Source: Nemertoderma westbladi (Eukaryota; Animalia; Xenacoelomorpha). Taken from it: a stretch of DNA of 64,000 nt. The position numbers and the translations under genes are program-made. Positions 59 through 40,614 of this stretch are shown piece after piece (within the stretch, counting starts at the first letter, position 1; every line of letters begins with the position of its first letter). The DNA lies in NCBI GenBank assembly GCA_032718475.1, contig JAUCBJ010006459.1, forward strand, positions 1 to 64,000, written 5' to 3'. Below the pieces are notes generated by a model, which saw nothing but the letters and a program-made list of their open reading frames with translations, did no database searches and was not told where the DNA came from.

Positions 59-3000
59 TTAAACTGCCAAAGGTCTGAAAGCGCGAACATCCTGGTCACT
101 TACCTCTAGTGAACGTATTGGTGCTCTAGTATACCAACCTATGGGAGTTCTACATGCGTAGGGGTTGCCCGCTGTAATAACAGATGGGCGTGTCTCCCAT
201 ACCTGATGTAAGTTAAACTGGTCTGTCCCAATTAACATCGCAATTGAACGATAATTAACAGGACATTCCGGTATTCCAAGATGTCGGAAATACTTACGAT
301 CTTCCGGTGATTGCTCTGGCACAGGGCCGAGCAAGTTACTAAAGTCCTTCGTAGCTGCAAAGGTCAAATTTCTTACCGGAAGTAATGAGCGCTCCTCCTT
401 GCTGTGTTCCGCTTTGGAAAGAAGAGTGTCTAAAGTTAGTTTTACTCTTGTCACAGGAATCGCTCTCTTACCATGCATGCTGCTTACAGTATACTGAGCA
501 GTCTTACCTTGACTCATGTCCGTAACTACGTCGGCTACTTGTTCGTCGACATAGCTATGCGATGACGCAGAGTCTAAGATGGCGTATATACGCTTGCTCC
601 CTCGGGTTCCGGTAATCTTTATAGGAATCACGCTAAACCCTTTCAATTGGTTCTGTGTGAGGAGCGTTATCGATGGCTGTTCCTCACCTGCATGCACGTA
701 GAAAGTGTCGTCTTCCTCCTCGTCCTCGTCCGATGATCCTGACTGATCCATACAGTCGGTATAAAAGGTACGGATCTCGCGCGGCGCATGCTCCTTATAA
801 AGCGCGTCGCATCTAGCCGCTTTATCTGGATGCTCTCGTCGAAAGCGTCTGGTCGGAGTATGACTGGTTGTGTGAAGCAACGCGTCATGGTTACGTCTAC
901 ACAGAGAACATGTATCGTCGCTCGGGCAATCCTTCCGGACGTGTCCTGGCTTCATACATCTCCAACAGGAATCTAGAGATCGGATTTGGAGTCTCCTCTC
1001 CTCGATCCCCAACTCTTTAAAAGCGCGACATCCACGTAGTTTATGTCCGCTATGGTTTCTGCCGTTCCGCTCGCAGTATGAGCATCCCACAAAGTCCGCC
1101 GGCAACTGTTGTCGTGGCTGCGTGGTGCCGATAGCCGTCAGAACTTTAGAAGTCTCAGTAGGGGTGGCGTAAGTAACGGCTTTCGCATTCGTCGGAAACG
1201 GTTTAGTCCGATTCGGCGCAGAAACAGTTATCCCTTCCGCCGCGATATGGTGATCGGTATAGTTCGATCGAGTCTCAATCACGGCCTCCCGTGAAATAAG
1301 TTGATAGACATCGGTGAGTTTTAATAACCCTCCGGCCTCTTCGCGCTGGTACTCGATGCGTCGCCATTCTCGTCGTAGTCGATGGTGAAGTCGACCGATT
1401 ATTCGAATGAGAACCGTCGGTGCGTTAGCGTACTCGAGTTGTCCAATGGACCGTAAAGTCCCTATAGCGTTCTTTATTTCGTCCGCGAGTCGTAAAAGGT
1501 CGATCGGTCTCGAAATGTTGCCTCCTCTGCAGAGGTCTTCAATAATGGATTTAGCCATGGCGACATTACCGCCGTAAATCGAATACAAACGGTCGTACGC
1601 CAATTCAAAGGCATCGGGAACTCCAATAAAGGTTTCCGCTAATCGTTTCGGCTCACCAGACAGAACTTGGAGCAAGTAATTAAACTTCTCCGTCGAGGTG
1701 AAAGCACACTTAGCGATCTGGGACTCTACGTAGTCTACCAGTGTGCGCCAGTGTTTCGCGTTGCCAGAGAACTTCGGCGGTTGCTGTGCCGGTAATCCGT
1801 GTCTAGCCGCGAATTTCGCAATCTCGCTAACTAAATCCAACTGTCCGCGTCCCTGTTCGGCGGCGTCGTCCAGTCGCTCCCTTCCGCGCGTTGTTCGTCG
1901 GTAGGAATTATTAACGGGATCTTCTTCTCGATGTGTCGGAGTCCGTCTAGTCTCCTGTTCTCTCCTCGGTGGTCGATGTTGTCTAGGTTGTTCCAACTCC
2001 ACGCTGGTTCGTGATCGATCCGACGGTTGCGCTTCGAGTCGCTCTTCGAGTTGAGCTATTCTGTCCGTCATCTCGGTGAACTGTTTGGCGCTGATCGTTT
2101 CCGCTGGTTTCAACGTGGGTTTCTGTTGGGGTGTTTCTCGTGGAGGATTGTCGATATAGGGGTTCGTCGATCGTTCCTCCCGTTTGTAATCCGCTGCCGC
2201 TGCCGCTCCAGTACGGAATATTTCCCGTTCCGTCGACTCCGAGTCACTGGATGAATCGCTGTCGTCCGGATAAGGTGGTTGGCGGGTTCGCGTCCGGCGT
2301 ATTATTCTTCGTCGAGTTCGTCGTGGTCTGGGATCTACGGCTCCTCGTTGTTCGGTAGGCTCGCAAGCCTTCCACGAAGTCGTAGGTCTCGTTAAACATT
2401 GGGTGAGAGGTCTAGTAAAAACATCTGAGTTAAGTTCTACTGTAGGTTTATAAATGACTGGGTTCGCGCAGCACGTCACAGGTTTAACTTGCAATGGTTT
2501 ACTCACCTGTTTTACTGTCATAAACGCAGGTTCGTCTCTCTCCACAAGTAAACTACGACTTACTGTAGGTGGACTAGTTATGTTACCTGCTAAAATTGGC
2601 GATGAAGTCGCCCTAGGTTGCGGTATTTCCGTCACAACAAACCTGCTACCTTGCGTCGGGCGCACAGGCGTTATTTCCTTAGGTTTCGTAACAAAGACCG
2701 GTTTTATCGGAGTCGTGGGTTTGAGCATAGGAATAACTTGGGGAAAATGTTTACAGTAATCCTCGACGAACTCCTCTCCTCGATCTATCGCTCCCACGCT
2801 TCCTTCCTCGATTCGCTTCTGGATTCCGCGATATCGAGTCTCCATGCGATCCAGGGCAGACAAGTCGTGTCCAGTTCGAGACCTTATAGATCTATCTCTC
2901 GCGTCGAGTTCGAGGTCCGCTTGCGCGTTCGCTGCCTCGCGCGATCTACGATTCAGTTCGAACTGGAGCTGCATCTCTCTTTCGCGTCGATCTGCTTCCT

Positions 3001-4243
3001 GTTGTTGTGCCGCTAACTCCGCTTCCTGTATCGCTAAACGAGCGTTTATTTGTCGCGCCTCCAACTTGGCCCGAGCGTCGGATGCTGCCTTTTTCCGTGC
3101 TAACTCGTCAGCTGCGTTTACCGCCGCAACTCGTGCTAACTCGTCGGCTGCCTGTCGTGCTAACTCGTCGGCTGCTGTCGCCTGTCGTGCTAACTCGTCG
3201 GCTGCTGCCGCCGCGGCCGCTTCTCGCGCTAAGTCCTCCTCCAGTCTCCGCATCTCTGATGCTTCGAACTCAGCCTGTGCTTGAAGTTTCGCAAGTTTCG
3301 CTACATCCTCTCTGCGCTATTTTTCTCCTTCGATGGCGATCTGTGCCATCTGTAGTTGCGCTTCTTCCTCGGCGACTTGTTGTCGGCGTGCAACCTCCTG
3401 TTGTTGTCGAGTAATTCCAGACGCTGTTCTACTAACGTCGCCAACGTTGCCAACGTCGCTCCGTACGCTAACGAACGATCTATCCAGTGGTGGATGTTGG
3501 TAGGCTCGCGAGCCTTCCGTAGTGAGAACTTCCGTCGTCCCTCGCGGTTCGACTTCCGGTTCGTCGATCGGTACGCCGCATCTACGAAGAAAATTGGTCA
3601 GCGTTTCCAACCTTCCGTCCAGGCAGTAGAGTTCTTCTTCCTCTTCGGGTTGTAACAACGCGTCCGAAACTGACTCACCTAGCAGTTGGTCGAACTGCTC
3701 CTGTTGAGCCAATCTTATCACCGACTTAAACTGGATAAGGCTTTCTCTCGCACTTACCAATTTATCTACTATCTTTACCTGAGTAAAGTTGTCGCCACGC
3801 AACTCTGCAAGTTCGTGCAAACCTTCAAGTTTATCTACGGAGGCATGTACCCTACTTTCTATCCTTACCTGTAAGGTGTAGAACTCGTATCTCGACATCG
3901 GGGCGGTTAACTCGCGTAAAACGCGAAAACCTTCTCCGAGGTTCCGAGTAATCTGGGCCATGTGTCCTCCTATACTTCTAATAACGTTCTCCTGGCTTCC
4001 AGTCGAACTTACCATGTCCGGTTCCCGCGATCTAGTCTGCGGGACGGTAAGGAAATCTTCGATTCTGCCGTCGCCACGCGTTGCGGCTTCCGGTATTTCC
4101 GTTCGGGGTACCGGCGACGCAAGCGGTGTGACATCGGTGGAATCTCGGGTTCTCCTTCTCGGTTCGTCTACTGTCGATCTGTCCGGGTCGCACGAGTCAT
4201 AGTCGGTAGGTGGGTATCTCGTCGAATGGGGTGTGTCACTCAT
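59..4243 (-). pseudogene. Gag-protease of element C, frameshifted near 3300 and ending shortly after the protease
   Basis: Two consecutive ORFs match the single N-terminal frame of A. They contain a DUF1759-like gag core, Cys/His knuckles (CWRCMKPGHVRKDC) and an aspartic protease motif (ILDSAS). Confidence 0.88.
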
Positions 4244-6973
4244 GTCTTATTATATACGTCAAGTACGGATAATAAAATGTCAAAGTGTCTGAATGTTGAA
4301 GTGTCAAACTTACCTAACCGGTACAAATAAATCAACAAGTCAGAATGTCGAAATGTCAAAATGTCGAAATGTACAAATGTCAAACTTACCTTGATATATA
4401 TATATATCATATATATACCCTAACCGGTACAAATAAACTAACAAGGTATATAATAAAATAAGTAGTAATCTAGCCTACCGGCTAAATTTGTACGAATAAG
4501 TGAGATAACGGTATACGTTAACAAAATGTAGATCAACAAGTATAAACAATAGGCCAAAACAGCAACGTCTAACGGGAAAATAAGTACCAACAACACTACT
4601 AATAGACAGTGAAACCCACAAATTTTGAGTACTACTGTGCTTTCTTAAGTTTGAACGACGCGAGTCGTAAAACTTACGTTCCTTTGATCTTCCAGTCGTA
4701 CAAATTCCCAAATACAAACCGGACGTGGGTCTTTCCGTTTTTCGGCGGCGCGGACGAATTTATTGTCTCCCAAACTTTGCGAAAAGCGGTCTAATCCTCG
4801 AAGCGGTCCAGAAATGAGTCCTTGAGTCCTGAAAAGGTCGAAGGTGAGAGTTTTACTTCTACGCTTACGAAAAATCTTCCTAGGTACCGATACAAATTGG
4901 TCTTTAAACCCTATGTACCTTTTCAAGTACCGAAAGTAACACCGCACACACACGGCGTAAAACAAAGTGCTACAAACTAACTGTTAGCTAGTCAAAGATT
5001 AAATACGAAAGTACTAGCTACCCTAAAAGCCTACTGAAGCAGGGGACGTTCTAAATTACTAAATTTACTAACCTTAGTTTTTAAATATCTCCTACTTTCA
5101 ATAGCTAACAATCGAAATAATACTATAAACTACGGCGGAAATACTATATACTAATTTATATAAATACTTCCTACTGTAAGGGTCCAGTAGTATACCGCTT
5201 ACCAGATCCTAGTAACGATGTATCTTACTATGAGACTCTAGTAATGTATACGGGCTTGTACAGTATCTGACAACAAATCCCAGTCCAGGATATCTAAACA
5301 AACAGATACAATACACAAACGACTACTGGCGAGGAACAGAGCCTTGTATCTATTCTATGTACGTGAGCGGGTCTAATGCCTACGTACTAGACAGAAGGAT
5401 ACCTGTCCTCTAACCGGTGAGGCAGATGTACAGTTACAGTAACAGACCAAACTCACGGGAAAACAATCCCCGCGCAGCGAATCCTAACTATCACTGACAG
5501 TCCTAAATACAGTAACTTGCCGCGGTGTGATTTATATGGTTTATATACGAGCTAGTGGGTTAACAGACCTAGCGTAACAACACTGACAGTCCTAAATCAG
5601 TCGAAAAGGGGTCGTACCTAAATGTAACAATAACTGATCCCCCTGTACGAAATCAGTCTAAAAGGTCAGGCCTAAATGTAACAATACCGTTGTCCAGACA
5701 AACAACAGTTTAATAACGAAAGTGAAATACTCCTTATTGCCGCAACTAAATCAGATCCTAATTTTACAAATACAGACAATTTCCACCTAAAGTAATGTAT
5801 AGTACGCTATAGCTAGTAGAACTTTAAGGGCAATATGTTTTAGGGCGTGTGTGTGTGGGTGTGTTACAAATAAAACAATTTCGTGTAATTCCTTTTACTA
5901 GGTTTTAGTGATTTTCTGACTAAATGATACCGTGCGCTAGCTACTAAAATAAACTAGTCGCGTTTGTAGAACTTTATACTCACGAATGACGTCAAAGCTC
6001 TCTCCTTCCTATCCACAACCCAATGGGCAACCACAGTGTTAGTAACTACACCCGTGATCGGCACTAATACCAGATTCTGGTTGTAAGATAAGAATAGGGG
6101 TTAATCGCTACCGTACGTTAGCTGATCTGGTATACTAATTTAATTCTAGAACTTTGTTGCTGCGGTAGTTAGCAGCAATACCTATCAGTACGTGGCAAGG
6201 CGCGGTAGGATATTAATAAACCTCCCTAGGCCAAGCAGTGTGCCGGTAGCAGAAATACTCCTTGCCTGATCAAATAGCTAACTCCAGACAGGGGGGGGGG
6301 GGGGGGGGTGTACTAATGTACGTTCTACAAAGCGAACCGGTACCAAACAGTCAGTGCTATGAATCACTAAATTATGGAACATATGCTGTCCGTACCTAAT
6401 ATGTACTCGCGTACTGACGAATGGCAATAGTTCGCACCTGTAGGAAGTACAGGTTTTAACCCAGGGATTCGTAGGACTTGACAAAGGGGGGGGGGGGGGG
6501 GGTTGTCTGGATATAATTATTTGATCCTAAATTTGCGGCGTCCAGTACGGTGTCACGCTTACCCTGATCTATAGGTCTTACGGCGGGCAAGGGCGTCGAA
6601 CAAAGTCTTACCTTCTCACAAAGCGGGCGCTGCATAGCAAGTGGAGTATTTCGAAGGGGCAAAGGGGGTGCGCGGTCGATCCAATGTGGGCGCTAGCGTG
6701 TTGTGGACATCCCTTCCCTGCGTTGCTTACGGCCTAACGATCTAGGCTGCCATCTCCCTGACGTTCGGCTGTCCCGAAGTAGGACCAAAGGAAAACATGT
6801 CAGGAATTTGCAGTATATTTACAGTTTTACAAAAGGATTTATCAAACGAAGTTTCAACAAGAAACCGAATAAACTAATTTTACAAAAGTAAGAGTTTTAC
6901 AAAGTGGTAAGAAGTGACATAATATAAGGTGTGTGTGACGTGATAACAGGTAATAACGGAAGGCAAACCGGCC

Positions 6974-7220
6974 TTTTATACTAGAAATTGCACATGGAAA
7001 CTAAACAGAATTTTCCACAGCTTCACCATTGAGCAATGAAGTGCTTCGTGCCCTATGATTGGCCCAGCTCATCGTTCAACGCAGTCCGGCCCTTACACTA
7101 ATCTGGGACATGGAATCCTAACAGAATTTTCCACTGCCTCACATTTGAGCAATAAGATAATTTATGCCCTATGATTGGCCTGGCTCATCATTCGCTACGC
7201 TGTACGCTTCTCATTGGCCT
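6974..7220 (-). promoter_or_regulatory. Pol II promoter in LTR C: duplicated ~115-bp unit with CCAAT and GAAnnTTC motifs, TATAAAA at 6980-6974
   Basis: A direct repeat at about 6991-7075 and 7107-7190 carries GAATTTTC and ATTGG in each copy. A third ATTGG is near 7213. TATAAAA reads on the minus strand. Confidence 0.6.
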
Positions 7221-7253
7221 ACCAATTAGCACCACACGAAAATAAATGGCCCC

Positions 7254-7343
7254 AAAATACAAATTTCCCGACTGGGATTCGAACTCGTAACCTATGTAAT
7301 GCACTATGTACTTTAACGCCTTAACCATCTGACCACTACGCCA
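7254..7343 (-). ncRNA. tRNA-like Pol III cassette (A box, B box, T-run) in U3 of LTR C
   Basis: The minus strand reads TGGTCAGATGGTTAAGGC ... GAGTTCGAATCC ... TTTT. The acceptor stem does not pair. Confidence 0.6.
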
Positions 7344-7599
7344 CGAGAGTACCTAAGGGTTTTATGTGTACAAATATGAATAGGCATATTACATTACTGT
7401 AGCTCAATCAAAATACGTCGGATTTTCGAAAGTTTTTACGTTAAAGTTAAACTACAAATGCTATCTTATAGTGAAATAATTCATCACCACGGGGTTAATG
7501 TTGACCCCCCACCCCCCCCCCAAACAATTGCTCATAAGAGTAGCTCTACTACTAGTATCGGCATGCTGCATTGCAGCTGCATTTTTAAGAATGCTGTGC

Positions 7600-7790
7600 C
7601 GGCTTGTGGACAAAATTGCGCCGCCACAATTCCCTATCACCCATGACATTTGCTAGATCATCCGCATCTTCAAGGCCAGTGTCCTTTAAGATCGTCTCAA
7701 GAAAGTCATGGGCTGTCCACCATACTTATTCACTCCGCTTGTTCGGCCTTAGGTATAGTTGAGAGACTGCTAGAGAGGCTTATTGTTGAG
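7600..7790 (-). mobile_element. Possible 3' remnant of an RTE-like LINE
   Basis: One minus frame reads ...DDLANVMGDRELWRRN, which resembles the C-terminus of RTE-clade ORFs. It is short and degenerate. Confidence 0.3.
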
Positions 7791-7814: not shown

Positions 7815-7925
7815 CTAAAGTGCCTAGTTGAGCGCCGGTCCTGCAATCTATTGGTTGTAGGTTAAACCCCGCCAGGTTCCTCTCAGCCTTTCAACCACTG
7901 GGGTCGATAAAATGAGTAGCAGTTA
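7815..7925 (+). mobile_element. tRNA-derived SINE fragment with conserved central domain
   Basis: A degenerate B-box (GGTTAAACCCC) is followed by TCAGCCTTTCAACCACTGGGGTCGATAAAATGAGTAGCAG. This resembles the central domain of widespread metazoan SINEs (Meta/Nin-type; recalled, not searched). Confidence 0.45.
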
Positions 7926-7944
7926 AAAATTACTGGAAGCAAAA

Positions 7945-9008
7945 CTTGGGATAGGAGTAGCGCCCACCCCTACCTTCGGGTAGCAGATAGGAGTAGCGTC
8001 CACCCCTACATTCGGGTTGCAGATAGGAATAGCGCCCACCCCTACCTTCGGGTAGCAGATATGAATAGCGCCCACCCCTACCTTCGGGTAGCAGATAGGA
8101 GTAGCGCCTACCCCTACCGTCTGGTAGCAGATAGGAGTAGCGCCCACCCCTACCTTCGGGTAGTAGATAGGAGTAGCGCCCACCCCTACCTTCGGGTAGT
8201 AGATAGGAGTAGCGCCCACCACTACCTTCGGGTAGCAGATAGGAGTAGCGGCCACCCCTACCTTCTGGTAGCAGATAGGAGTAGTAGCGCCCGCCCACCC
8301 CTACCTTTGGGTAGCAGATAGGAGTAGCGCCCACCCCTACACTCGGGTAGCAGATAGGAGTAGCGCCCACCCCTACACTCGGGTAGCAGATAGGAGTAGC
8401 GCCCACCCCTACCTTCGGGTAGCAGATAGGAGTAGCGTCGACCCCCTACCTACGGGTCACAGATAGGAGTAGCGCCCACCCCTACACTCGGGTAGCAGAT
8501 AGGAGTAGCGCCCACCCCTACCCTCGGTTGGCAGATAGGAGTAGCGCCCACCCCTACCTTCGTGTAGCAGATAGGAGGAGCGACCACCCCTACCCTCGGG
8601 TACCAGATAGGAGTAGTGCCCACCCCTACCCTCGTGTAGCAGATAGGATTACCGCCCACCCCTACCTTTGGGTAGCAGATAGGAGTAGCGCCCACCCCTA
8701 CACTCAGGTAGCAGATAGGAGTAGCGCCCACCCCTACCCTCGGGTAGCAGATAGGAGTACCGCCCACCCCTACCTTTGGGTAGCAGATAGGAGTAGCGCC
8801 CACCCCTACACTCAGGTAGCAGATAGGAGTAGCGCCCACCCCTACCCTCGGGTAGCAGATAGGAGTACCGCCCACCCCTACCTTTGGGTAGCAGATAGGA
8901 GTAGCGCCCACCCCTACACTCAGGTAGCAGATAGGAGTAGCGCCCTTCCCTACCCTCGGGTAGCAGATAGGAGTAGTAGCGCCCGCCCACCCCTATCTTT
9001 GGGTAGCA
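7945..9008. repeat. 36-bp minisatellite (GCAGATAGGAGTAGCGCCCACCCCTACCTTCGGGTA)n, about 29 units
   Basis: Head-to-tail units with point variants are directly visible, with no unique spacers. Confidence 0.95.
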
Positions 9009-9519
9009 GCTATCGAGAGAGGAGCCTTTGGGTCGCCTCTGGCTTCGGTCTACTTGATTTTTTGTTAGAAATATACATTATACAGATCTGCGCATTTAAT
9101 AAGGGTGTACTGTACATGTGTTCATGGACTGTTATTTTGCACTCCCCGCCAACTCCTTTTTTCTAGTATCTACTATCAGACTGTGACCGTAGATACTTGT
9201 TACTACTGTTAATGTACCATACACTGCAGTACTGGCGCAATGGTGCTCAACAGAACCTGCAGCCCTACAACAACCCTGGGTACTGGTATATTATAATATT
9301 GTAACAATGAATAATTCTGATATTAGTTGATTTAATTATATTAATTACACTAAACCTGCATATTGGCATATAAATAAAGTAAAATTTTTTGCTTTGTCGC
9401 TTATTCAATATCCAATGAAAACAAAAGATATTGAAAACGTGTGAAATTAATGTTGACATAAATACTTTCTACTAACTATCATTCTTTATTTTAATATTTG
9501 TATTATTTTATAAAATTAG

Positions 9520-9717
9520 GTGTTTGTGGTTGATAGTGTTGATGCTTCTGACCTCAGTAATTTGGCTAACAACACAGACAATATTTGTGGTTCAGTCGAA
9601 GTTACGGCCGTGCAGAGTATAGACTGCAGAGGGAAACCTGGTCGTTATGTCGTTGTGTTCCAGGGCGGCGACACACCCCTGACGCTCTGCGAAGTCCAAG
9701 TGTATCCTCCACAATAG
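9520..9717 (+). CDS. Terminal exon of a host gene with an F-type lectin (fucolectin/FTP) domain C-terminus
   Basis: A T-rich tract and AG acceptor lie at 9518-9519. The translation includes CGS...C.GKPGRYVVV...LTLCEVQVY and a TAG stop, the typical end of an FTP domain. Confidence 0.72.
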   Translation: MFVVDSVDASDLSNLANNTDNICGSVEVTAVQSIDCRGKPGRYVVVFQGGDTPLTLCEVQVYPPQ

Positions 9718-10299
9718 ACACAAAAGTAGCTACAGTACAGTAGGGTATGAAGGAATTGAATATTCTATTCACTGTAGTGACTATCTATATGGTCGTGGGA
9801 TAGTATTTAATGTTAACGGTATGATAATTCTCCAAACAAATACATTGCCTTCCATTAGAACTTCAGTTTTCTGTGCCTTGAACTCACGTCCTTCATCTTA
9901 GAAGACCAACACTCTAACCAACTGAACTTATGGTCGCCAAGAGTGGTGAAAGATGTACCAACTGACATGTAAAAGAACATATAATAATAATCAATCACCA
10001 CAATGATAAACCAATCGTTAAATACTGAATACTGCTAAATATAATATCAATAGTCAATAACACCAGACCGATATCCAATTATTGTTCACACCTCTACATT
10101 ATTCCTGTGTTTCGAGCTGCCTCGATACAAAGTTTCCTGACAAAACCCCCATACATACTCTTACAGTAAGCAACTTCCACAATAACTTATATTGCACAAG
10201 TATGTGGTTACCAATAGAAAGTTGTTTGCCTCTATCAAGTATACAATGTATTGAACAATTTGAACAATCAATCAATCACATGATTTCGGAAGAGCTCTT

Positions 10300-10900: not shown

Positions 10901-11577
10901 GGATCACTCTGGGAATGGGTGTCTTGTTGGCTGTGAAGGGCATGTATAGTATAGGCGGGGGGGTTGATGAATTATGTGGGAGTGTTTGAGGGATGTGGAC
11001 TGGTGGAGCAGGAATGGTTGGGTTGCGGTTAGTTGCTGGTGCATTGGGTAAAAGAGTTGGAGAGATAGTGGTATGTATGTTTGTTGGAAATGATTGCGCT
11101 ATGGACTAAAAAATATTTGCAATTTAATCAAAGTTAAATTTGCAATTAAACTAATAATTTCAAAATGTCAGGGAAAATATTTTTTAGTTTACGATTGTCA
11201 ATTATATACATTTGCTACAATTATATACAATGAAAACAAACAAAAATCAACAAACAAGCAACAGACGGGTATGGAAAAATTAACATGATTTGATGAAAAA
11301 TATATATGTTACAATTATATACAAATATATATACAACAAACAAATATTATATTATACAACAAACAAACAACAAACTAGCAGCAGGAATTAATATGATTTG
11401 ATTGTAAGGTGTATATATGTTAAAACAAACAATAAGCAGCAGATGGATATGGGGAAATGATTATGATTTGATTATAATGTATGTATGCTACAATTATATA
11501 AATAAACAAACAGCAAGCAATAAACATATGTGATTTATATATACATGCAACAAACAAAATCCCTCAAACAAAAAAAA

Positions 11578-11726
11578 TGCCTCAGTGAGGCGTAGTCTGT
11601 GCCTCAGTGAGGCATAGTCTGTGCCTCAGTGAGGCATAGTCTGTGCCTCAGTGAGGCATACTCTGTGCCTCAGTGCCACAGTGAGGCATAGTCTGTGCCT
11701 CAGTGAGGCATAGTCCATGCCTCAGA
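11578..11726. repeat. 22-bp tandem repeat with palindromic core GCCTCAGTGAGGC
   Basis: About 6-7 copies of GCCTCAGTGAGGCATAGTCTGT. Confidence 0.9.
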
Positions 11727-11765
11727 CCTAAAACTCAAGACTTTAGGAGTGCCTGATGTCTTAAA

Positions 11766-12297
11766 TGTTAGCTTATTCAATCCCGCTAACACCCCATAAA
11801 GTTGTAAGCCGATAAGCAATATTGGGAGCCACGAGATTGGGCAATTAACCAACTCGTGCCATCCCAATAAGAGTGGGAAGGAAGCACACAATAAAGGGTC
11901 AGGGGCCAAACCCCTAACCCAGAGAGTACAGGTGGAGTGAACGGGAACACTCCACGGGGCGCCAACAAGGGTAACAACCAATCAGAGGGGGGCAAGGCAT
12001 CGATTGAGTAGAGCAATAAGGCCACCGTGCAATATAACCAGTAACACAATGTCAGTAATTCAGTTATCTCAGTGCAGTGTAGGTTAGTTAGTTTAGATAG
12101 GGGAGCACGGGACTTTAGTTACCGTATCCCGCCTTCCGTATATTATACTACAGTCATCATATCTATATCTTATACCTATCAATTATTATACACCGAATAT
12201 CAGAACTCATTCACTATTTCCGTTTACTCTTTATACACGGCGGGGACGCGTAAACTAAACACCGGATAAATCGGGATCCCTCCTGGATCCCGTCACA
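11766..12297 (+). repeat. 5' LTR of B (532 bp)
   Basis: Near-identical to 43010-43541 (2 substitutions seen). TATAA lies near 12034 and a TCAGTT Inr near 12060. Confidence 0.97.
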
Positions 12298-12365
12298 GTA
12301 ACTAAATCAGCTGCCGCCCTAGATAAACTCAATAATCAACTAGCACCGAAATCTGCAGAAGAGAG

Positions 12366-18616: not shown

Positions 18617-18742
18617 TATAGAATTATATTCCCTAAATGCCGTGGATTTTCAAAATTTGATTTTATTCGGATTAACTTTGTAAAGATTGCTTTGAGTTCT
18701 CATTCGTATTGGTTCTATCATTTGTACATCTATCGGTCAAGT

Positions 18743-18829
18743 GGTTCAGTAGCTCAGTCGGTAGAGCGTTGGAAATTATATGTGTAGTAGGTGTTGAGTT
18801 CGAATCCTAGTAAGTGCGAATTATTTTTT
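18743..18829 (+). ncRNA. tRNA-like Pol III cassette in U3 of the A 5' LTR
   Basis: TAGCTCAGTCGGTAGAGC (A box and D arm), GAGTTCGAATCC (B box, 18796-18807) and T6 at 18824-29. There is no acceptor stem or normal anticodon arm. Confidence 0.7.
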
Positions 18830-18879
18830 GTACAGAATTTCAACTCATTTAAATTAACCGCTACAAATTAATTGCATTT

Positions 18880-19060
18880 ATCTGTACCAATGAGACTGTA
18901 GTTATTTGATTGTAACCAATGTCGTGCAAGTTATATATTAGCTGGACCAATAGCTATCTTTAAAACCCCGTTAGAACCCATAGAACAATCGAGAATTTTC
19001 TCGATTGATTGCGGCACAAATTTGCTATATAAAGGTGCGATTTGTTCATTAGTTATTCAC
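18880..19060 (+). promoter_or_regulatory. Pol II promoter of LTR A: three CCAAT boxes, HSE-like palindrome, TATATAAA at 19026-33
   Basis: CCAAT at about 18887, 18916 and 18947; CAATCGAGAA-TT-TTCTCGATTG at 18986-19007; TATA box followed by TTAGTT about 20 nt downstream. Confidence 0.65.
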
Positions 19061-21340
19061 TTCTACTTCACAGATTATCTTATCAATATTCTGTTGTGCT
19101 TAGTTTATTTCAGATTACATTGTACATATTATTATAATCTTCTGTAATAAAGTCAGAATATTCTCTCAGCTTTTCTATCTGTTTTACTATGGATTCACTA
19201 CGGTGAACTAACTCAGGGACAGGATGGCCGGCTAGAGATCGGGCCGCAGCAATGAACGGGAACATCACGGGAATGTAGACGAGAGACAACCCGCAATACC
19301 ATTTAGAGTTATTCGCCCATCGCCTGAAAGGTTAGACAGCGTTCGATCCTTGCTACCTAAGTGTAAGACCAAAAGATCAAAAGGTAGACGTAGTGACACG
19401 CTGTAAGCCCAAAATTACATCATAGGGACTGTACTGTCTTGATTCAGGAAAACCCACAGTAGACCTTCACATTCCTACGGGGGGGGGGAGAGAGAGCGCA
19501 GGCAGATACTAGTACGCAGATAGGACGTAGGCACACCGGTACAAGGCATACACATTGGTTAGGGTGCAGCAAACTGTACGCTTAACTCTTGCTAAGTACA
19601 GGTGCGTGTGCGACTATTTGCAGTACGACAGTGTCCATTACATCAGAACTTGTAGGCTAGGGGGTTGCTGTGTTTTTACCTGAATTGGGATTGTACCGTT
19701 CGGGCGGTAGGGCAGTTTACGTACTAGGCGCAAATAAATTGAGGCTATCAGGGATATACTAACATCTACCGTGTCCCCGCCAACGCCCTAATAGGAAGTT
19801 ACCCGGACTACCTGGGTGACTAAAATTCTAGATAGGAGCCAGGATAGCTATTAGTACCTGTACGCCTACAGTAGTAAACTAACACATCTCTTCTTAGTAT
19901 CAGGGACCTGGTACCTAAAATTGCCGAATTCTGGGCGTAGTATTAACCTTATGCCTGAATTTGAGTCCTGGAAATACGCAAGAGGGGAAGGAACCTTATC
20001 ATTCGTGAGTATTGGACCTACAAGTTACAAAATTAGAATATTCGTAAATGCACACCGTACCCAGTAATTATATATGTGAAGGAGCAAAACTGTTTTGACC
20101 GTTCAGAATTAACACGCGCGTTAGAAATTATTTACACCTCGAAATATATAAAATTAACTTTTGTCCGTACTGTGCTTTGCCCGCTAGTTAGACATCTCCA
20201 AATCTCTGCCTGTACCTAGCTAGCGTCTCTTTGCCCAACCATATAAATCACACCGCGGCAAGGTATACGAGCCTCTTAGTCCGTCAGTGAGTCAGCCTGA
20301 TTTTAGGATTCGCTGCGCGGGATTTTGTTTTATCGAAGTTTGTCTGCTCGTAGACTGTTTTCTGCCTCACCGGTTATAAGAGATCGATACTGCAATATAT
20401 TCGCTTACTTAGTTTATTGTTTTGGTGAGAAGGTCGGATTTATGATTTGATTTACAAACTTTACAGTAGGATATTGCAGGTATTGTTACCGTCTCTTCGC
20501 ATAGTAGGAATAGGCGTATCTCTTCAATTAGTAGGAATATGTTTTACTGAACTACGGTTCGGTAGGACTAAAGTTATTTGAAAATTCTGTATTTTGAGGT
20601 AAAAATTTGTATTTGATTAGCTAAGTGCTAATTTTTTGAAATAAAATTTGATTTGAACCGCGTGTAAAATATTTTTGGAATTGAATACCGGTGTTTTAAA
20701 AGGGTTTAAATACCATATTGTACCGGTACAAAATTTTCGTAAAAGTAAAACCTAACTCTTTTGTTTTTTCAGGATTCAGAACTCATTTCTAGACTGTAAC
20801 GGGAGCAAGACCGTGTTTAGCAAGTTTGGGAGATAGATAACTCAACAACTTTGGTTGGGAAAATCGCGTTTCGTCCGCAACGTTAAAAACGGAAAGGTTC
20901 ACGTCCGGTTTGTATCTGGGAATCTGTTTTTCTGGAGAATTATTGGAGTGGGTGAGTTCGAAAAGTTGCATAAATAAGTTAGGCATTACCGTATTAGTTA
21001 AAAATTATTGTGGGTTCCACTGTCTCAAGTATTTATGCATTCCGTATGATTTCTTTGTTCATTGCTGAATTAGTCCGTATTATTGTATTTAATTTACCTT
21101 TTGATAACGCATATCGTTATCCGAATTATTTGTTATAAAATTGGCCGCTAGGCTAATTTTATTATATACTTATTCCGTGACATTTATTTGCTGTAAAATT
21201 GGCCGTTTAGGCTAATTTTATCCATCTGCTATAAAATCGGCCGGTAGGCTAATTTTATAAGACTGTAATTAGTACCGTTTAGATAAATACGGTAAACTCG
21301 ATACTTTGACACTCACTTTACTTGACTTACAACTACCGAA

Positions 21341-30033: not shown

Positions 30034-30700
30034 TTAGGAGTTTACAAATAGATTTCCACGTACCTGTACACTGTAGTAAGGACAGCGGTGGGATTCCATT
30101 GTCTTTATATGTGAACATTGAGGGTAGTACCCTTATGTGTCACATAGGAGCGGGATTTGTAGGTATAAGAAATGTAATTCTACTTGGAACTCACAATATT
30201 GAGACATTTTTGAAATTTTAGACAATCCATTTGGATTTGAAAATTTTTAAAAATTTTCTCCAGTGAATAGATTTCAGGGTACAGTCGGGTGGAACTTAAA
30301 ATTAGAGAAACAAGAGAGGAAGACTTGCGAGCCTTTCTTAAAAAAAAAATTTTTTAATTAAATTTTACACGGTCTTGTTTCAATAAGTTACGTCGAAATA
30401 GACTCCCCTATATTTATTACTAATTCTTGATTGCTTATTTTCTGATAATAGTTTGGGATCAAAAGGTGAGTATTTTAGACTCACAGCCAGTTTAGCCCAA
30501 ATTCGTTTTTATTTCGGCAAAAAATTTTAGATAAGAAGCAGCGTGTCATTAAAGAAACCTTAGATCTTAGGCTATGGGTAGGAGGTTAGAGCGTTGTCGA
30601 AGCCCAAAGGGCAGACGAAACTCTCACGTCTCCTCACAACTAACTACAAACTCTGTTGTATTCCCTCTAGTAGTAATGATTATGTAACTACACCCTAATT

Positions 30701-33700
30701 ATGGAGAAAGGGATACAAGGAGAGCCGAGATGGGGATATGATATCCAAGAGGAGGCAGCAGCGCCATTCGAAAGATTTGGAGCCAAGGATTATACTATAT
30801 TTGGTATAAAAGAATTATCGGAAAGTACAGCGAAACTCGTGAGAACTAAATATGACTCGAACGTATTAAAGAGAAGGCAAAACGCATTAAACGAAAGAAT
30901 CGAAAGTTTGCGCCAAACCTTCAACGAACTTTACCCGTACGATGCTTTGTGTGATACGGGAGACATTAGCGAAGACCCCGATACTGAAATTAGTCGTTTG
31001 TATCATACCATGCAATACCTAAAGGCGCATGAACCTATGCCCGCGGTACGCGATGAATTCGATGGAATGCATCTTTACAGACGAACTCGAGGGGACGATA
31101 GAGAAACCAAGGAAGCATTTTCAGTTTATAAACTTTATTATCAATGCGGTTCTTGTATGCGCGAACAACGAAATGCGATTCCGATGCGTTTGAATAAGGA
31201 AAATCCCGAACCGATATTGGCGAGGTGTTCGAATCATCAACAACTACGCTACCAGGAAGGAGGGTATCCTTTATCGAATCCATATCATTCATTTGCTATG
31301 ACCGGACCAAAGGCGGGAGAAACTGTCATTTACCCACCTAAGGTTGTTGAACCCGATGTATTTGAACTTACGCTGGACGAGGCGAATCAGTCAACCCGCG
31401 AAAAGAAAGAAGCTCTTAGCCTATACAGAGCCTACAAGGCTTTCGAGAAAGGTGAGATGGAAGAATGGGGTGGAAGACTCGCGAGCCTACCTTGCCATTG
31501 GACGTCACACGATCAAACTTCAGCTAAGGAGATGACACCGGAAGTTTTCGAGAGCATAAACTTTGCTCAAAACGTTATTCAGAGACTACAGATTGCATCC
31601 CCGGAGAGGCCAAGAGAAATGCAACCGTATAGTACTTCAACTACGAAACCATTGAGTACGACACTCAATTTCCCTATTAGTATACCAGTCCGACAGGATA
31701 CGACGTACGAAATACCCATCGTGGATCATCCAGAAATCATTTCAAACTTGGAGTTTCTTCCTGCAGTTGTTTTCAGCGATATGAGTAAGATATATGATTT
31801 ACGTAGACATATTACTCAAAAGGTCGTGCACAACGTTCCACCTCATATTCAAGATTTCAAGGAACTGGATAGAGCTGGTGCCGACATAGCTCCAAGTAAT
31901 CTGAAAGGATATCTAACCAAGACGATTCGTTTATGGATTGGAACCGGAACCTTCGAGTCGGATACAGATATTGCCGCAGATTGGCGAGGTAAGGTTATTC
32001 GTTTCGATGAGGATAAGGATATAGAGAAGATTTGGCAACCTTCGGAAGAATTGTTGGATGAATGGACTAGGACGTTTAGATCGTTTCAGGAAAACGGTTA
32101 TATGTTTTACGATAACGAGGGCGGCAGTCATCAGCAGAGTTTGACTTCTAAGACTATACAAATTAGAGCGGCGGACGGAGTCCTGCACGTTTTCAGTAGA
32201 CAGAGGAGCGACAAACGAATGCCGATACCTCCAGCGAATACAAAGCGACACCATCTTATCACCGATATAGTAAAGAAGATGGACCAAGCCTGTAATATTG
32301 ACGCTAGAATGCTACCGAAGATGGTAAGAAACATGATTTTAGATAAAACTGTTGTAAAGGTTGGATCAGGAGTAAGGGAGGATTTAATTAGCGACTTCGC
32401 CGGCATGACGGACAGCGATGACCGACTACCGACACCATACGTCGACACTCGACCTCTTATTCTGTGGTCTATAGAACAGGGATATTTTCGTGAGTATAAT
32501 ACTCAGAAGACTGGAACTGGATACATTTCCTACCTGTTATTCAATTGGGATTATAAGGAAAATAAGAGAAACAAGTATATTGAAACTTATGGAGAAGGTG
32601 ATACTCCAGATATGAGTGAGTTTGAATCACAGCTTAAATGGAGAGGATGCATGTATTGGGCTATTACGTCACCTCCAAGAGCGGTCTTACAATATTATTT
32701 AGCGATAGAGTCGTCAGTGAATGTTTGCCTAATCGCCGACATTGTGTCTCGGACTCTCAAAAGACATCCACTTTGTCTCGGAGAAGATCATACGTTCTAC
32801 ATGGAAGGGAGAATTCGTACCGACGTGTTTAGACGATTCCTTGAACCCTTCTACAACTCCGACGCTCAGTGTAATGCCTTTACTCGAGCAGGATTTAGCA
32901 TATTTCGAGACGTGTATCTTCGCTGTGCGGGATCTCTTATCGAAAGACCATCTATGTTTACACTGTTACCCAATGAAGGAGAACGTATCGTGGAAATTAC
33001 GGATGAATCACGGCAGACGCGCGCGCCTATCGGTCACCTTGGTGATGAATTCGAAGTAACTACTACGATCGCCGACGATCCTTTAGAGGAACTTCTTGAG
33101 ATAGAAAGGAACCTCCCGAAGAAATCTCAGACGGAGATTCGACAACTTGAAGCAACAGATGCTATAGTTTGTATACAACCTTCAGAAACCTACCAACCCA
33201 TAGACCCAGATGATTACGATTATAGTGTGGGAGGAAGCGCTCGACCGATTGGAGATCTTATATATGAACGAGTGTGGTACCCTGCGAATACGATGTGTAG
33301 TAAATGTGGCGTCGCTGGACATCATATGGCAAAGTGCAGTGGAAAGCACATTACTACGACTCAGCTAATCTGTGGATGGTGTGGGGATCAAGGGTCTCAT
33401 ACCTTTTATACTTGCTGGAGATTTATGGCCCAATGTACTTATTGCAATATAAAGGGACATCGAGCATCTGAATGCCAACTAAGGGACATACCTTATGAAC
33501 ACGAATCTGTAAAACTCGTGAGGAAGTTATTTGATGAGTGGGAAGATTTAGCCGACGAACATGTATCAGCACAAAGAAGACGGTTTCCGTTGAGAGCGCA
33601 TCTCGGATTTTGGGCGGTAAATCCCCAGACGATGATGTCGGAAGGATATATCTCCGCTATGCCCCAATATGACGAACTTATCGAGGTTGTCGATATTTTG

Positions 33701-34426
33701 CCCCACGACAGCGGATTCCGAGTGGTGCGCGAGTATCTGTTACAAATTCACCCGGATAACAAAAACACGTGGAATTTTCAGAAAGTCGTTAATCGGATTA
33801 CGTATGGTGAATTCGATCGTTTCCGAACTGAAAAGCGGAACAAGGGAGCTTGGTTAACCGTCGCATGGGCGTACCGAGCCGCGTTTTACCACAAACGTAT
33901 ACGAGCGAGCGTATTCGAGGAAGAAGAGGTCCTAGAGGCGACAAATATACCAGCCACTCCGGTTGCGCCGTCTGCACGTCACCCTCGGGAGGACGGGCAG
34001 GGTAGGATCATACGGGTCCAAAAGGTGGGCCAACAATTAAAGAAAATTATTAATGTAGAAGAACGCAAAGGAGTTGAGCCGACTATTCGAGTTACTCGGG
34101 ATACGGTATCACTTCCAAGAGAACCAGTAGGAGGGTCGGGACATACACCAGCTGATCAACAGGGGGCGCAAGCTACTCTTGGGTCTGCGTCGTCCGCTTC
34201 TCGCGCGTTCCCAGACGTTCTACCAACTGTAGTGACGACTGATCGGTCACGAGGAATCGGTCGAGGTTTTGGGATGCTAAATAAACGAATTTGCGAGGAA
34301 ATAGTCGCACCGTCTCTCAACGTCCCAAGTAAACCAGTGACTCGCCCCACAAGTCCCATATCGCGAGCAAAGTCACCTGTGCGCAGTTTTCGAGGACGCG
34401 GCAGGGCTCGATCCACTAAGCGATAA
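30701..34426 (+). CDS. Accessory ORF2 of A (1241 aa): DEDDy 3'-5' exonuclease-like domain plus three CCHC zinc knuckles
   Basis: Intact ORF in the env position. FYDNEG (ExoI DxE), LPKMVRNMILDKTVVKVGSGVREDL (ExoII, WRN/EXD-like), YVDT and QYYLAIE (ExoIII-like). Knuckles: CSKCGVAGHHMAKC, CGWCGDQGSHTFYTC, CTYCNIKGHRASEC. Confidence 0.8.
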   Translation: MEKGIQGEPRWGYDIQEEAAAPFERFGAKDYTIFGIKELSESTAKLVRTKYDSNVLKRRQNALNERIESLRQTFNELYPYDALCDTGDISEDPDTEISRLYHTMQYLKAHEPMPAVRDEFDGMHLYRRTRGDDRETKEAFSVYKLYYQCGSCMREQRNAIPMRLNKENPEPILARCSNHQQLRYQEGGYPLSNPYHSFAMTGPKAGETVIYPPKVVEPDVFELTLDEANQSTREKKEALSLYRAYKAFEKGEMEEWGGRLASLPCHWTSHDQTSAKEMTPEVFESINFAQNVIQRLQIASPERPREMQPYSTSTTKPLSTTLNFPISIPVRQDTTYEIPIVDHPEIISNLEFLPAVVFSDMSKIYDLRRHITQKVVHNVPPHIQDFKELDRAGADIAPSNLKGYLTKTIRLWIGTGTFESDTDIAADWRGKVIRFDEDKDIEKIWQPSEELLDEWTRTFRSFQENGYMFYDNEGGSHQQSLTSKTIQIRAADGVLHVFSRQRSDKRMPIPPANTKRHHLITDIVKKMDQACNIDARMLPKMVRNMILDKTVVKVGSGVREDLISDFAGMTDSDDRLPTPYVDTRPLILWSIEQGYFREYNTQKTGTGYISYLLFNWDYKENKRNKYIETYGEGDTPDMSEFESQLKWRGCMYWAITSPPRAVLQYYLAIESSVNVCLIADIVSRTLKRHPLCLGEDHTFYMEGRIRTDVFRRFLEPFYNSDAQCNAFTRAGFSIFRDVYLRCAGSLIERPSMFTLLPNEGERIVEITDESRQTRAPIGHLGDEFEVTTTIADDPLEELLEIERNLPKKSQTEIRQLEATDAIVCIQPSETYQPIDPDDYDYSVGGSARPIGDLIYERVWYPANTMCSKCGVAGHHMAKCSGKHITTTQLICGWCGDQGSHTFYTCWRFMAQCTYCNIKGHRASECQLRDIPYEHESVKLVRKLFDEWEDLADEHVSAQRRRFPLRAHLGFWAVNPQTMMSEGYISAMPQYDELIEVVDILPHDSGFRVVREYLLQIHPDNKNTWNFQKVVNRITYGEFDRFRTEKRNKGAWLTVAWAYRAAFYHKRIRASVFEEEEVLEATNIPATPVAPSARHPREDGQGRIIRVQKVGQQLKKIINVEERKGVEPTIRVTRDTVSLPREPVGGSGHTPADQQGAQATLGSASSASRAFPDVLPTVVTTDRSRGIGRGFGMLNKRICEEIVAPSLNVPSKPVTRPTSPISRAKSPVRSFRGRGRARSTKR

Positions 34427-35280: not shown

Positions 35281-37204
35281 TATAGAATTATATTCCCTAA
35301 ATGCCGTGGATTTTCAAAATTTTATTTTATTCGGATTAACTTTGTAAAGATTGCTTTGAGTTCTCATTCGTATTGGTTCTATCATTTGTACATCTATCGG
35401 TCAAGTGGTTCAGTAGCTCAGTCGGTAGAGCGTTGGAAATTATATGTGTAGTAGGTGTTGAGTTCGAATCCTAGTAAGTGCGAATTATTTTTTGTACAGA
35501 ATTTCAACTCATTTAAATTAACCGCTACAAATTAATTGCATTTATCTGTACCAATGAGACTGTAGTTATTTGATTGTAACCAATGTCGTGCAAGTTATAT
35601 ATTAGCTGGACCAATAGCTATCTTTAAAACCCCGTTAGAACCCATAGAACAATCGAGAATTTTCTCGATTGATTGCGGCACAAATTTGCTATATAAAGGT
35701 GCGATTTGTTCATTAGTTATTCACTTCTACTTCACAGATTATCTTATCAATATTCTGTTGTGCTTAGTTTATTTCAGATTACATTGTACATATTATTATA
35801 ATCTTCTGTAATAAAGTCAGAATATTCTCTCAGCTTTTCTATCTGTTTTACTATGGATTCACTACGGTGAACAAACTCAGGGACAGGATGGCCGGCTAGA
35901 GATCGGGCCGCAGCAATGAACGGGAACATCACGGGAATGTAGACGAGAGACAACCCGCAATACCATTTAGAGTTATTCGCCCATCGCCTGAAAGGTTAGA
36001 CAGCGTTCGATCCTTGCTACCTAAGTGTAAGACCAAAAGATCAAAAGGTAGACGTAGTGACACGCTGTAAGCCCAAAATTACATCATAGGGACTGTACTG
36101 TCTTGATTCAGGAAAACCCACAGTAGACCTTCACATTCCTACGGGGGGGGGGGGGGGGGGGGAGAGAGAGCGCAGGCAGATACTAGTACGCAGATAGGAC
36201 GTAGGCACACCGGTACAAGGCATACACATTGGTTAGGGTGCAGCAAACTGTACGCTTAACTCTTGCTAAGTACAGGTGCGTGTGCGACTATTTGCAGTAC
36301 GACAGTGTCCATTACATCAGAACTTGTAGGCTAGGGGGTTGCTGTGTTTTTACCTGAATTGGGATTGTACCGTTCGGGCGGTAGGGCAGTTTACGTACTA
36401 GGCGCAAATAAATTGAGGCTATCAGGGATATACTAACATCTACCGTGTCCCCGCCAACGCCCTAATAGGAAGTTACCCGGACTACCTGGGTGACTAAAAT
36501 TCTAGATAGGAGCCAGGATAGCTATTAGTACCTGTACGCCTACAGTAGTAAACTAACACATCTCTTCTTAGTATCAGGGACCTGGTACCTAAAATTGCCG
36601 AATTCTGGGCGTAGTATTAACCTTATGCCTGAATTTGAGTCCTGGAAATACGCAAGAGGGGAAGGAACCTTATCATTCGTGAGTATTGGACCTACAAGTT
36701 ACAAAATTAGAATATTCGTAAATGCACACCGTACCCAGTAATTATATATGTGAAGGAGCAAAACTGTTTTGACCGTTCAGAATTAACACGCGCGTTAGAA
36801 ATTATTTACACCTCGAAATATATAAAATTAACTTTTGTCCGTACTGTGCTTTGCCCGCTAGTTAGACATCTCCAAATCTCTGCCTGTACCTAGCTAGCGT
36901 CTCTTTGCCCAACCATATAAATCACACCGCGGCAAGGTATACGAGCCTCTTAGTCCGTCAGTGAGTCAGCCTGATTTTAGGATTCGCTGCGCGGGATTTT
37001 GTTTTATCGAAGTTTGTCTGCTCGTAGACTGTTTTCTGCCTCACCGGTTATAAGAGATCGATACTGCAATATATTCGCTTACTTAGTTTATTGTTTTGGT
37101 GAGAAGGTCGGATTTATGATTTCATTTACAAACTTTACAGTAGGATATTGCAGGTATTGTTACCGTCTCTTCGCATAGTAGGAATAGGCGTATCTCTTCA
37201 ATTA
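35281..37204 (+). repeat. 3' LTR of A (1924 bp), preceded by short PPT GGAGCGG; tRNA-like cassette at 35407-35493
   Basis: Direct repeat of 18617-20530. Confidence 0.95.
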
Positions 37205-39519: not shown

Positions 39520-40125
39520 AGTAGGTACGCAGTTAGTAGGCAGAAGGTACGTAGTACCTAATTAGTTAGTAGGTACGTAGTACCTAGAGTTAGTTAGTTA
39601 GTCAGAAGGTACGTAGTACCTAAGTTAGTTAGTAGGTACGTAGTACCTAGAGTTAGTTAGTTAGTTAGAAGGTACGTAGTACCTAATCAGTTAGTAGGTA
39701 CGTAGTACCTAGAGTTAGTTAGTTAGTCAGAAGGTACGTAGTACCTAATTAGTTAGTAGGTACGTAGTACCTAGAGTTAGTTAGTTAGTTAGTAGGTACG
39801 TAGTACCTAGAGTTAGTTAGAGAGTTAGAGGGTACGTGGTACCGTTAGTTAGAGTTAGAGGGTACGTAGTACCGTTAGTTAGAGTTAGAGTTAGAGGGTA
39901 CGTAGTACCGTTAGTTAGAGTTAGAGTTAGAGGGTACGTGGTACCGTTAGTTAGAGTTAGAGTTAGAGGGTACGTAGTACCGTTAGATAGAGTTAGAGTT
40001 AGAGGGTACATAGTACCGTTAGTTAGAGTTAGAGGGTACGTAGTACCGTTAATTAGAGAGTCGGAGGGTACGTAGTACCATTAGTTAGAGAAGAGTTAGA
40101 GTTAGAGGGTATGTGGTACCATTAG
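39520..40125. repeat. Tandem array of GGTACGTAGTACC cores with (TTAG)n/(TTAGAG)n spacers between pol and ORF2 of B
   Basis: Directly visible; about 18 cores. Confidence 0.92.
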
Positions 40126-40614
40126 AGAGAGAGGGAGTAAGAGGTAGAAGGGTATATAAGATATAGATATTAGTTAGCAGTTAGTAGCGAGAGGGGGGCA
40201 TATGAGTACAGCTGGGTAAATCGTGTGGCCACACGACGCATACTGCTGTACTGCATAGACCCACAGAGTAGGCCAGAATGTGGATTAGAGAATAGAATAA
40301 TCCATAGGCAGTAGTAAGTAGTAGGACAGTAGAATCAAATTAAAATAGATAAATAAATAGAATAGGGCTGAAAGTTGTGAAATAGTGGCAACATAAGGGA
40401 AGTTATTCTAGAACATAATAAAAGTAACGGACAGAAATTGTAAATTACGCTCATTTACTAGCTTCAAAATTAATTAGGAATAATTTAGGTTAAAAGGCGC
40501 AGTTAAGTAGAAGTAGGCCATTATCGAACTGTACAGAACATCCTAGATACATCACTCATCTGTATTGCGCCTTGGTAAGGCACCACCTTGCAGGTGAGCG
40601 AGTGAACGTTCGGA

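Follow-up and report, generated by a model that had tools for sequence, protein, structure and literature searches.

Two families of BEL/Pao retrotransposons, A and C, which are sister families by sequence comparison, contain in the U3 region of their LTRs a tRNA-like cassette of A box, B box and T run. The cassette is present in all four A and C LTRs of the window (the complete 64-kb stretch of DNA analysed) and in 0/2 family B LTRs. In family C it occupies positions 7343-7254 of the minus strand and comprises A boxes, a 31-nt body, a B box and a T4 run; as the first-pass annotation had described, all three signals lie in sense orientation, with the gag ORFs (59-4246) on the same strand. Two overlapping A-box-like motifs (7343-7318, minus strand), which start at 7343 (TGGCGTAGTGG) and 7335 (TGGTCAGATGG) and were judged against the A-box consensus, include a 3-bp D-stem-like hairpin. 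They are followed on the minus strand by the inter-box body (7317-7287), the B box GAGTTCGAATCC (7286-7275), which is identical in both families and represents the fifth longest exact word common to their LTRs, and the T4 run (7257-7254), a predicted Pol III terminator that is a T6 run in family A. Homologous cassettes lie in the 5' LTR (18617-20530) and 3' LTR (35281-37204) of the full-length family A copy A1, at 18742-18829 and 35406-35493 of the plus strand, and in the 3' LTR of a second copy, A2, at 51019-51106 of the minus strand.

The box assignments follow the A-box and B-box consensus patterns. By these patterns, the layout is that of a type 2 Pol III promoter, with A box, B box, tRNA-like spacing and a T-run terminator; in both families the boxes are 48-51 nt apart and the T run lies about 20 nt past the B box. 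The A boxes begin 144/152 nt and the B box 201 nt into the family C LTR, compared with 126/134 and 180 nt in family A, so the earlier placement at 110-130 nt from the LTR start does not hold for family C and fits family A only roughly. The word GTTCGAATCC has exactly four occurrences in the window, one per A or C LTR. Likewise, a pattern of A box, B box and T4, with spacing limits chosen after the cassettes had been seen, matches solely in these four LTRs, while 3 of 200 block shuffles had one match and none had two. Downstream of the cassette, three CCAAT boxes and a TATA box (7217-6976, minus strand) mark by their motif positions a predicted Pol II promoter region.

The elements concerned are nested LTR retrotransposons with the Pao-type domains DUF1759, Peptidase_A17 and DUF5641 (domain search of the 64-kb window). 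Their membership in BEL/Pao (Belpaoviridae) is indicated by this domain set and by BEL-type homologues, with 88/88 protein matches carrying PF05380; the best named protein matches, at 35-40% identity, belong to a soft coral, a limpet, a bryozoan and a hydrozoan, which makes an invertebrate host probable. Belpaoviridae are characterized by an 18-nt primer site for tRNA-Arg or -Gly, LTRs of 0.2-1.2 kb and genomes of 4.2-10 kb (PMC8742986). The present elements exceed these norms, with LTRs of 1.9-2.3 kb and a length of 18.6 kb for A1, and they lack a TGG primer site; judged by protein, they are BEL/Pao elements, but atypical ones. A reverse-transcriptase query against viral contigs found no relative. 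A1 is inserted within family B, its LTR pair differs by 3 substitutions in 1924 columns, and TTGAA is duplicated at both flanks; A2 is inverted relative to A1. Family A has termini TA...TA with the 5-bp duplication TTGAA, 1.9-kb LTRs and a length of 18.6 kb, the termini of its sister family C being TG...CA, and a short duplication shifts the LTR end of A1 relative to that of A2 by about 26 nt. An ORF of 1248 aa (30680-34426, plus strand) downstream of the family A integrase had no Pfam match; it has no hydrophobic segments above 1.6 and two N-glycosylation motifs, and is not obviously an envelope protein. Elsewhere, the window holds tandem arrays at 7842-9121 (36-bp units), 11552-11747 (22-bp) and 39537-40144 (30-63-bp), a LINE fragment bearing an endonuclease (47974-49374, plus strand; domain search), and, by eye, a lectin-like exon fragment (9520-9720, plus strand), called from its motif.

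Family C lies on the minus strand and enters the window from its left edge, showing a single LTR there. Its gag-protease ORFs (59-4246, minus strand) encode DUF1759 and zf-CCHC domains, with a stop at 3316, and share with family A 57% identity over 1144 protein columns (Gag-protease) and 68% in coding DNA. The 5' LTR of family C spans 5175-7486 of the minus strand (2312 bp, TG...CA). Its start was set at the TG at 7486 because contigs from public runs have loose ends at this position, beyond which their flanks vary, and 3'-LTR contigs resume at 7488, with their loose ends in a polypurine tract resembling that of family A. Its end at 5175 was inferred from the CA dinucleotide, one contig ending at this position and homology to family A.

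An alignment of the A and C cassettes extends over their full length, with 62/96 columns identical and 0/1000 shuffles scoring as well. The U3 sequence upstream is also alignable (81/148 columns; 9/1000 shuffles), whereas over the 100 nt downstream the match is no better than chance (889/1000). The B box agrees at 12/12 positions, as claimed earlier; taken alone, the other parts are each weak (A-box part, 104/1000 shuffles; body, 69/1000; tail, 51/1000). The inter-box part, previously described as different between the families, is indeed variable, being an indel hot spot with about 8 extra bases in the window copy relative to most bridging contigs, but it can still be aligned with family A at 20/34 identical columns (69/1000 shuffles, as given above). 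In this comparison, made between two families of a single genome, the cassette comes fourth among the distinct conserved islands of the LTR and ranks 8 among 75 windows by local scores; a global MAFFT alignment of both LTRs misplaced a known conserved U5 block. The most conserved A/C block (5541-5411, minus strand; 20237-20376, plus strand) contains exact words of 26, 19 and 16 nt and a TATA-like word, and may be a second promoter or an RNA element; the 3' half of the B box has its sole complement there. A second conserved island (6650-6560, minus strand; 19320-19400, plus strand) contains in each family an isolated B-box-like word, with no A box seen, 130-150 nt upstream of a candidate self-primer. 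An 18-nt U5 word common to both families occurred at 15 metagenome loci, and 15/15 were chance matches confined to the word.

Family C copies were drawn from contigs of three studies (X1=X3, X2 and X6), of which X1 is possibly the source sample. Among the 12 indel rows listed, of 15, 10 fall within 7296-7313, between the boxes, and none in the boxes. Of the 29 substitution rows, the flanks account for 21, the body for 5, the tail for 2 and the B box for 1, at its last base, whereas the A boxes have 0; the interval 7315-7348 likewise has none (0/29). The boxes are not significantly depleted relative to the flanks (1/38 vs 21/227; p=0.14), and the difference from the inter-box part is borderline (1/38 vs 5/31; p=0.06). 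Between A1 and A2, 3/48 substitutions fall in the 90-nt cassette, which amounts to no depletion, and none is in the B box. One diverged contig has 0/30 differences on the A-box side compared with 11/95 upstream (p=0.04), and a single X2 contig joins 7294 to 7367 through other letters, representing a variant in which U3 and the B box are the same and the 5' part has been replaced. The proposal that the boxes rather than the body are constrained is supported by the invariant B box between families and the placement of the indels, but the substitution counts by themselves do not reach significance.

In contigs of public runs, compared at >=80-85% identity, there was no sign of an independent high-copy SINE, the cassette showing no depth peak of its own and no pile of loose ends. 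Summed contig depth over the cassette was 1.43 (X1), 1.33 (X2) and 0.64 (X6) relative to the three next LTR bins, whereas the repeat at 7546-7736 was deeper by 15, 17 and 35 times, respectively, and one of its borders had 214 and 171 loose ends; contig depth is no copy number, and therefore only this contrast was used. The repeat (minus strand), which served as the positive control, is of very high copy, with a short TAG-repeat tail, and is by eye a LINE 3' end. In X6, the cassette reached 7.8 times the median LTR depth, as did the whole U3 stretch. The several-fold greater depth of this stretch (6921-7526) than of U5 in X6 could reflect sister subfamilies, or a short derivative, with U3 in common. 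At 80% identity, contigs cross both cassette borders, those only partly aligned numbering 18/547, 19/206, 18/280 and 2/17, and no pile at the borders was found among the 21 of 49 loose-end rows listed. No free SINE copies with borders of their own were seen at >=80-85% identity, although more diverged ones may exist, and neither a SINE tail nor a target-site duplication was visible around 7254-7350. Heads of tRNA-derived SINEs keep their boxes and lose the cloverleaf, as the cassette does; unlike a tRNA-derived SINE, the cassette lacks a body, a tail, a target-site duplication and any free copies seen. The outcome set beforehand as contradicting an LTR origin, a separate high-copy SINE absent from most LTRs, was not encountered. 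The view of the cassette as an ancestral LTR component rather than a chance SINE insertion is upheld by its presence in 4/4 A and C LTRs and the homologous U3 upstream, although this status is no proof of function. Its ultimate origin is likely an old SINE or tRNA insertion in the common ancestor of A and C. Another head with A-box-like and B-box-like motifs, unrelated to the LTR cassette, lies at 9860-9945 (minus strand) and is possibly a true tRNA-derived SINE.

The cassette is not a tRNA gene, its cloverleaf having been lost. ARAGORN reported 0 tRNA genes, and the Rfam tRNA model had no match at E<=5 in the window or E<=10 in 201-nt stretches; a wider Rfam search of 4900-7200 found no ribozyme or other family. 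Only 2/5 T-stem pairs remain in family C and 3-4/7 acceptor-stem pairs. A hairpin resembling a D-stem can be read from the sequence of each family, with 4 bp in A and 3 bp in C, although its letters are not the same in the two. The cassette folds no better than shuffles (z -0.97 to +0.97) and forms no stable pre-miRNA-like stem-loop, unlike a miRNA gene of the foamy-virus type, where such a stem-loop precedes the terminator. The 3' half of the family C cassette is complementary to a U5 stretch (5297-5277, minus strand), the best site in this element (-29.2 kcal/mol; 12/300 shuffles, and 0/200 for a region picked afterwards). The corresponding family A tail reached 179/300 and 24/200 with its own U5, and the cross pair of A tail and C region scored as well (6/200). 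Pairing between tail and U5 was accordingly dismissed as a shared feature; it is confined to family C, where it remains a lead. Each LTR has a single GGATTCG, the complement of the 3' half of the B box, within a 19-nt block that is the same in both families.

In all three families, the 30 nt after the 5' LTR lack a TGG, and each family contains within its LTR a complement of its own primer site. In family C, the primer-binding-site position (5174-5165, minus strand) begins with GTAGG, and the candidate self-primer (6449-6440, minus strand) is a 10-nt perfect complement of the post-LTR bases (5/2000 shuffles) that aligns with the family A site; another complement near 6915-6907, good by eye, came second to it and was set aside. 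The candidates in family A (19471-19478 with 20531-20538; 8 nt perfect, 53/2000) and family B (12114-12122 with 12298-12306; 9 nt perfect, 9/2000) are shorter. Among 300 leader start points, as long a complement was found at 29 in A, 2 in C and 1 in B. The A and C sites are homologous and one compensated pair apart (8 and 10 nt with their own partners, 7 in the cross), and the own-family duplex is the best in 3/3 families. The helix is part of the minimum-energy fold in A only (pair probability 0.83-0.99), and is absent from that of B (0) and of C (<=0.02). These complements, a post hoc observation in which A and C are not independent, hint at self-priming of the Tf1 type; that this BEL/Pao lineage swapped host-tRNA priming for fold-back self-priming appears evenly poised between true and false. 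The nematode BEL/Pao element Cer7 reportedly encodes a tRNA-like primer, and the U3-R of HIV-1 carries a tRNA-like sequence. A combined scheme, in which a self-priming BEL/Pao element makes its own tRNA-mimicking Pol III RNA from U3 that anneals to U5 and replaces tRNA as the activator of reverse transcription, would be quite improbable.

At a likelihood we place slightly short of even, the cassette is predicted to be a Pol III promoter of ancestral, tRNA-derived origin that U3 has retained to dock TFIIIC and Pol III, not as a tRNA. A tRNA gene or the head of a tRNA-derived SINE would have entered U3 once, in the common ancestor of A and C, and reverse transcription would since have copied it to both ends of each new insertion. 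TFIIIC would occupy the boxes, TFIIIB would load at the outer LTR border, and transcription by Pol III would give a short unstructured RNA of about 85-95 nt ending at the T run, following general Pol III biology, in which TFIIIC binds the boxes, TFIIIB loads upstream and a short RNA stops at a T run. The selected effect would lie at the DNA level, as an open, barrier-like site that separates the chromatin of flanking repeats from the Pol II promoter with its CCAAT and TATA boxes, 40-300 nt further downstream, and so helps to keep the element's own promoter open. This is the likeliest selected function because the cassette body varies freely; barrier activity is established for tRNA genes and TFIIIC sites. 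The docking site is favoured by a cassette that stays alignable beside chance-level downstream sequence and by a perfect B box despite only 68% identity in coding DNA. Against it count the minimal T4 terminator of family C and the success of family B in the window without a cassette, and the retained D-stem-like hairpin is more than a pure DNA role needs. A neutral relic, an old tRNA or SINE head carried along in U3 and slowly decaying, is somewhat unlikely; it would suit the non-significant substitution depletion within families, the missing RNA structure, the cassette-free family B and the alignable upstream U3, but not the perfect B box and kept T run amid chance-level downstream sequence or the indels that avoid the boxes.

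The short Pol III RNA itself could be the selected product, as a trans decoy, a source of small RNAs or a helper annealing to the element's U5. This prediction, which we consider unlikely, accords with a complete unit including its terminator, the D-stem-like hairpin of both families, the U5 pairing in C and the sole GGATTCG per LTR, yet the body is the most variable part, no stable pre-miRNA-like hairpin is formed, family A has no site of its own and the cross pair is as good. Transcription of a template RNA, for the element or for a short non-autonomous derivative as in Cassandra and Helenus, is very improbable: although the anatomy is that of Helenus LTRs (PMC10886601), and the several-fold excess of U3 depth in X6 is what a U3-sharing derivative would give, a T6 or T4 run directly follows the B box, 11-12 runs of T4 or longer are listed per LTR, A1 is 18.6 kb long with gag-pol, and CCAAT and TATA boxes are present. 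Hardly credible is a cassette encoding the element's own reverse-transcription primer, even in elements without a TGG-type tRNA primer site. In family A, the cassette pairs with the 20 nt after the LTR at -12.8 kcal/mol (13/300 shuffles), through its 5' and middle parts rather than its 3' end; in family C the corresponding value is -6.0 (238/300), on which this candidate was rejected, and every LTR, including that of cassette-less family B, offers a better partner elsewhere. Since A, B and C have complements in their own LTRs, the cassette is not needed as a primer. If such a Pol III promoter is conserved in autonomous BEL/Pao elements, a protein-coding retrotransposon would carry a second polymerase system in its U3, providing a testable case of an element that brings its own chromatin barrier; self-priming, if true, would contradict the standard description of BEL/Pao as primed by tRNA-Arg or -Gly.

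Pol III promoters in LTRs have so far been described in short non-autonomous elements (Cassandra, Helenus and Ajax) and in foamy viruses. No report of a Pol III cassette or of self-priming in autonomous BEL/Pao elements was found among the top listings of a literature search, which covered neither subscription journals nor Repbase entries, and passages of PMC3601003, PMC6238403, PMC13524379, PMC554778 and PMC9094657 mention neither such cassettes nor the primer sites of BEL/Pao. The Tf1/Tj1 elements similarly have a primer site complementary to a segment of their own LTR, but are of the Ty3/gypsy type, in which the 5' end of the RNA provides the primer (PMC4600332), whereas the candidates in the BEL/Pao families A, B and C lie mid-LTR. 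Simian foamy virus LTRs contain Pol III miRNA genes, with boxes and terminator beside the Pol II unit of an autonomous retroelement; their RNAs are expressed stem-loops processed to miRNAs (PMC3993851), whereas the cassette has no stable hairpin. Cassandra and Ajax, 5S-derived TRIMp3 elements, resemble families A and C in having a Pol III promoter in both LTRs, but this is a 5S-type promoter in a non-autonomous element with an LTR-to-LTR transcript (PMC10886601). The closest known system is Helenus, a TRIMp3 element (Kojima 2024, PMC10886601), in which a tRNA-like sequence likewise lies in the LTR with conserved boxes and no primer complementarity. Families A and C differ from Helenus/TRIMp3 in size and coding capacity, with LTRs of 1914 and 2312 bp and gag-pol ORFs, and in having no tRNA-complementary primer site, the 30 nt after the LTR being free of TGG. 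Helenus itself is described there as non-autonomous, shorter than 1 kb, without coding capacity and dependent on Gypsy or Copia for mobilisation, with a promoter proposed to drive a template RNA, whereas the A and C cassette has a terminator right behind it (PMC10886601). If their promoter is conserved, cassette-bearing BEL/Pao elements could be the missing source of Helenus-like elements.
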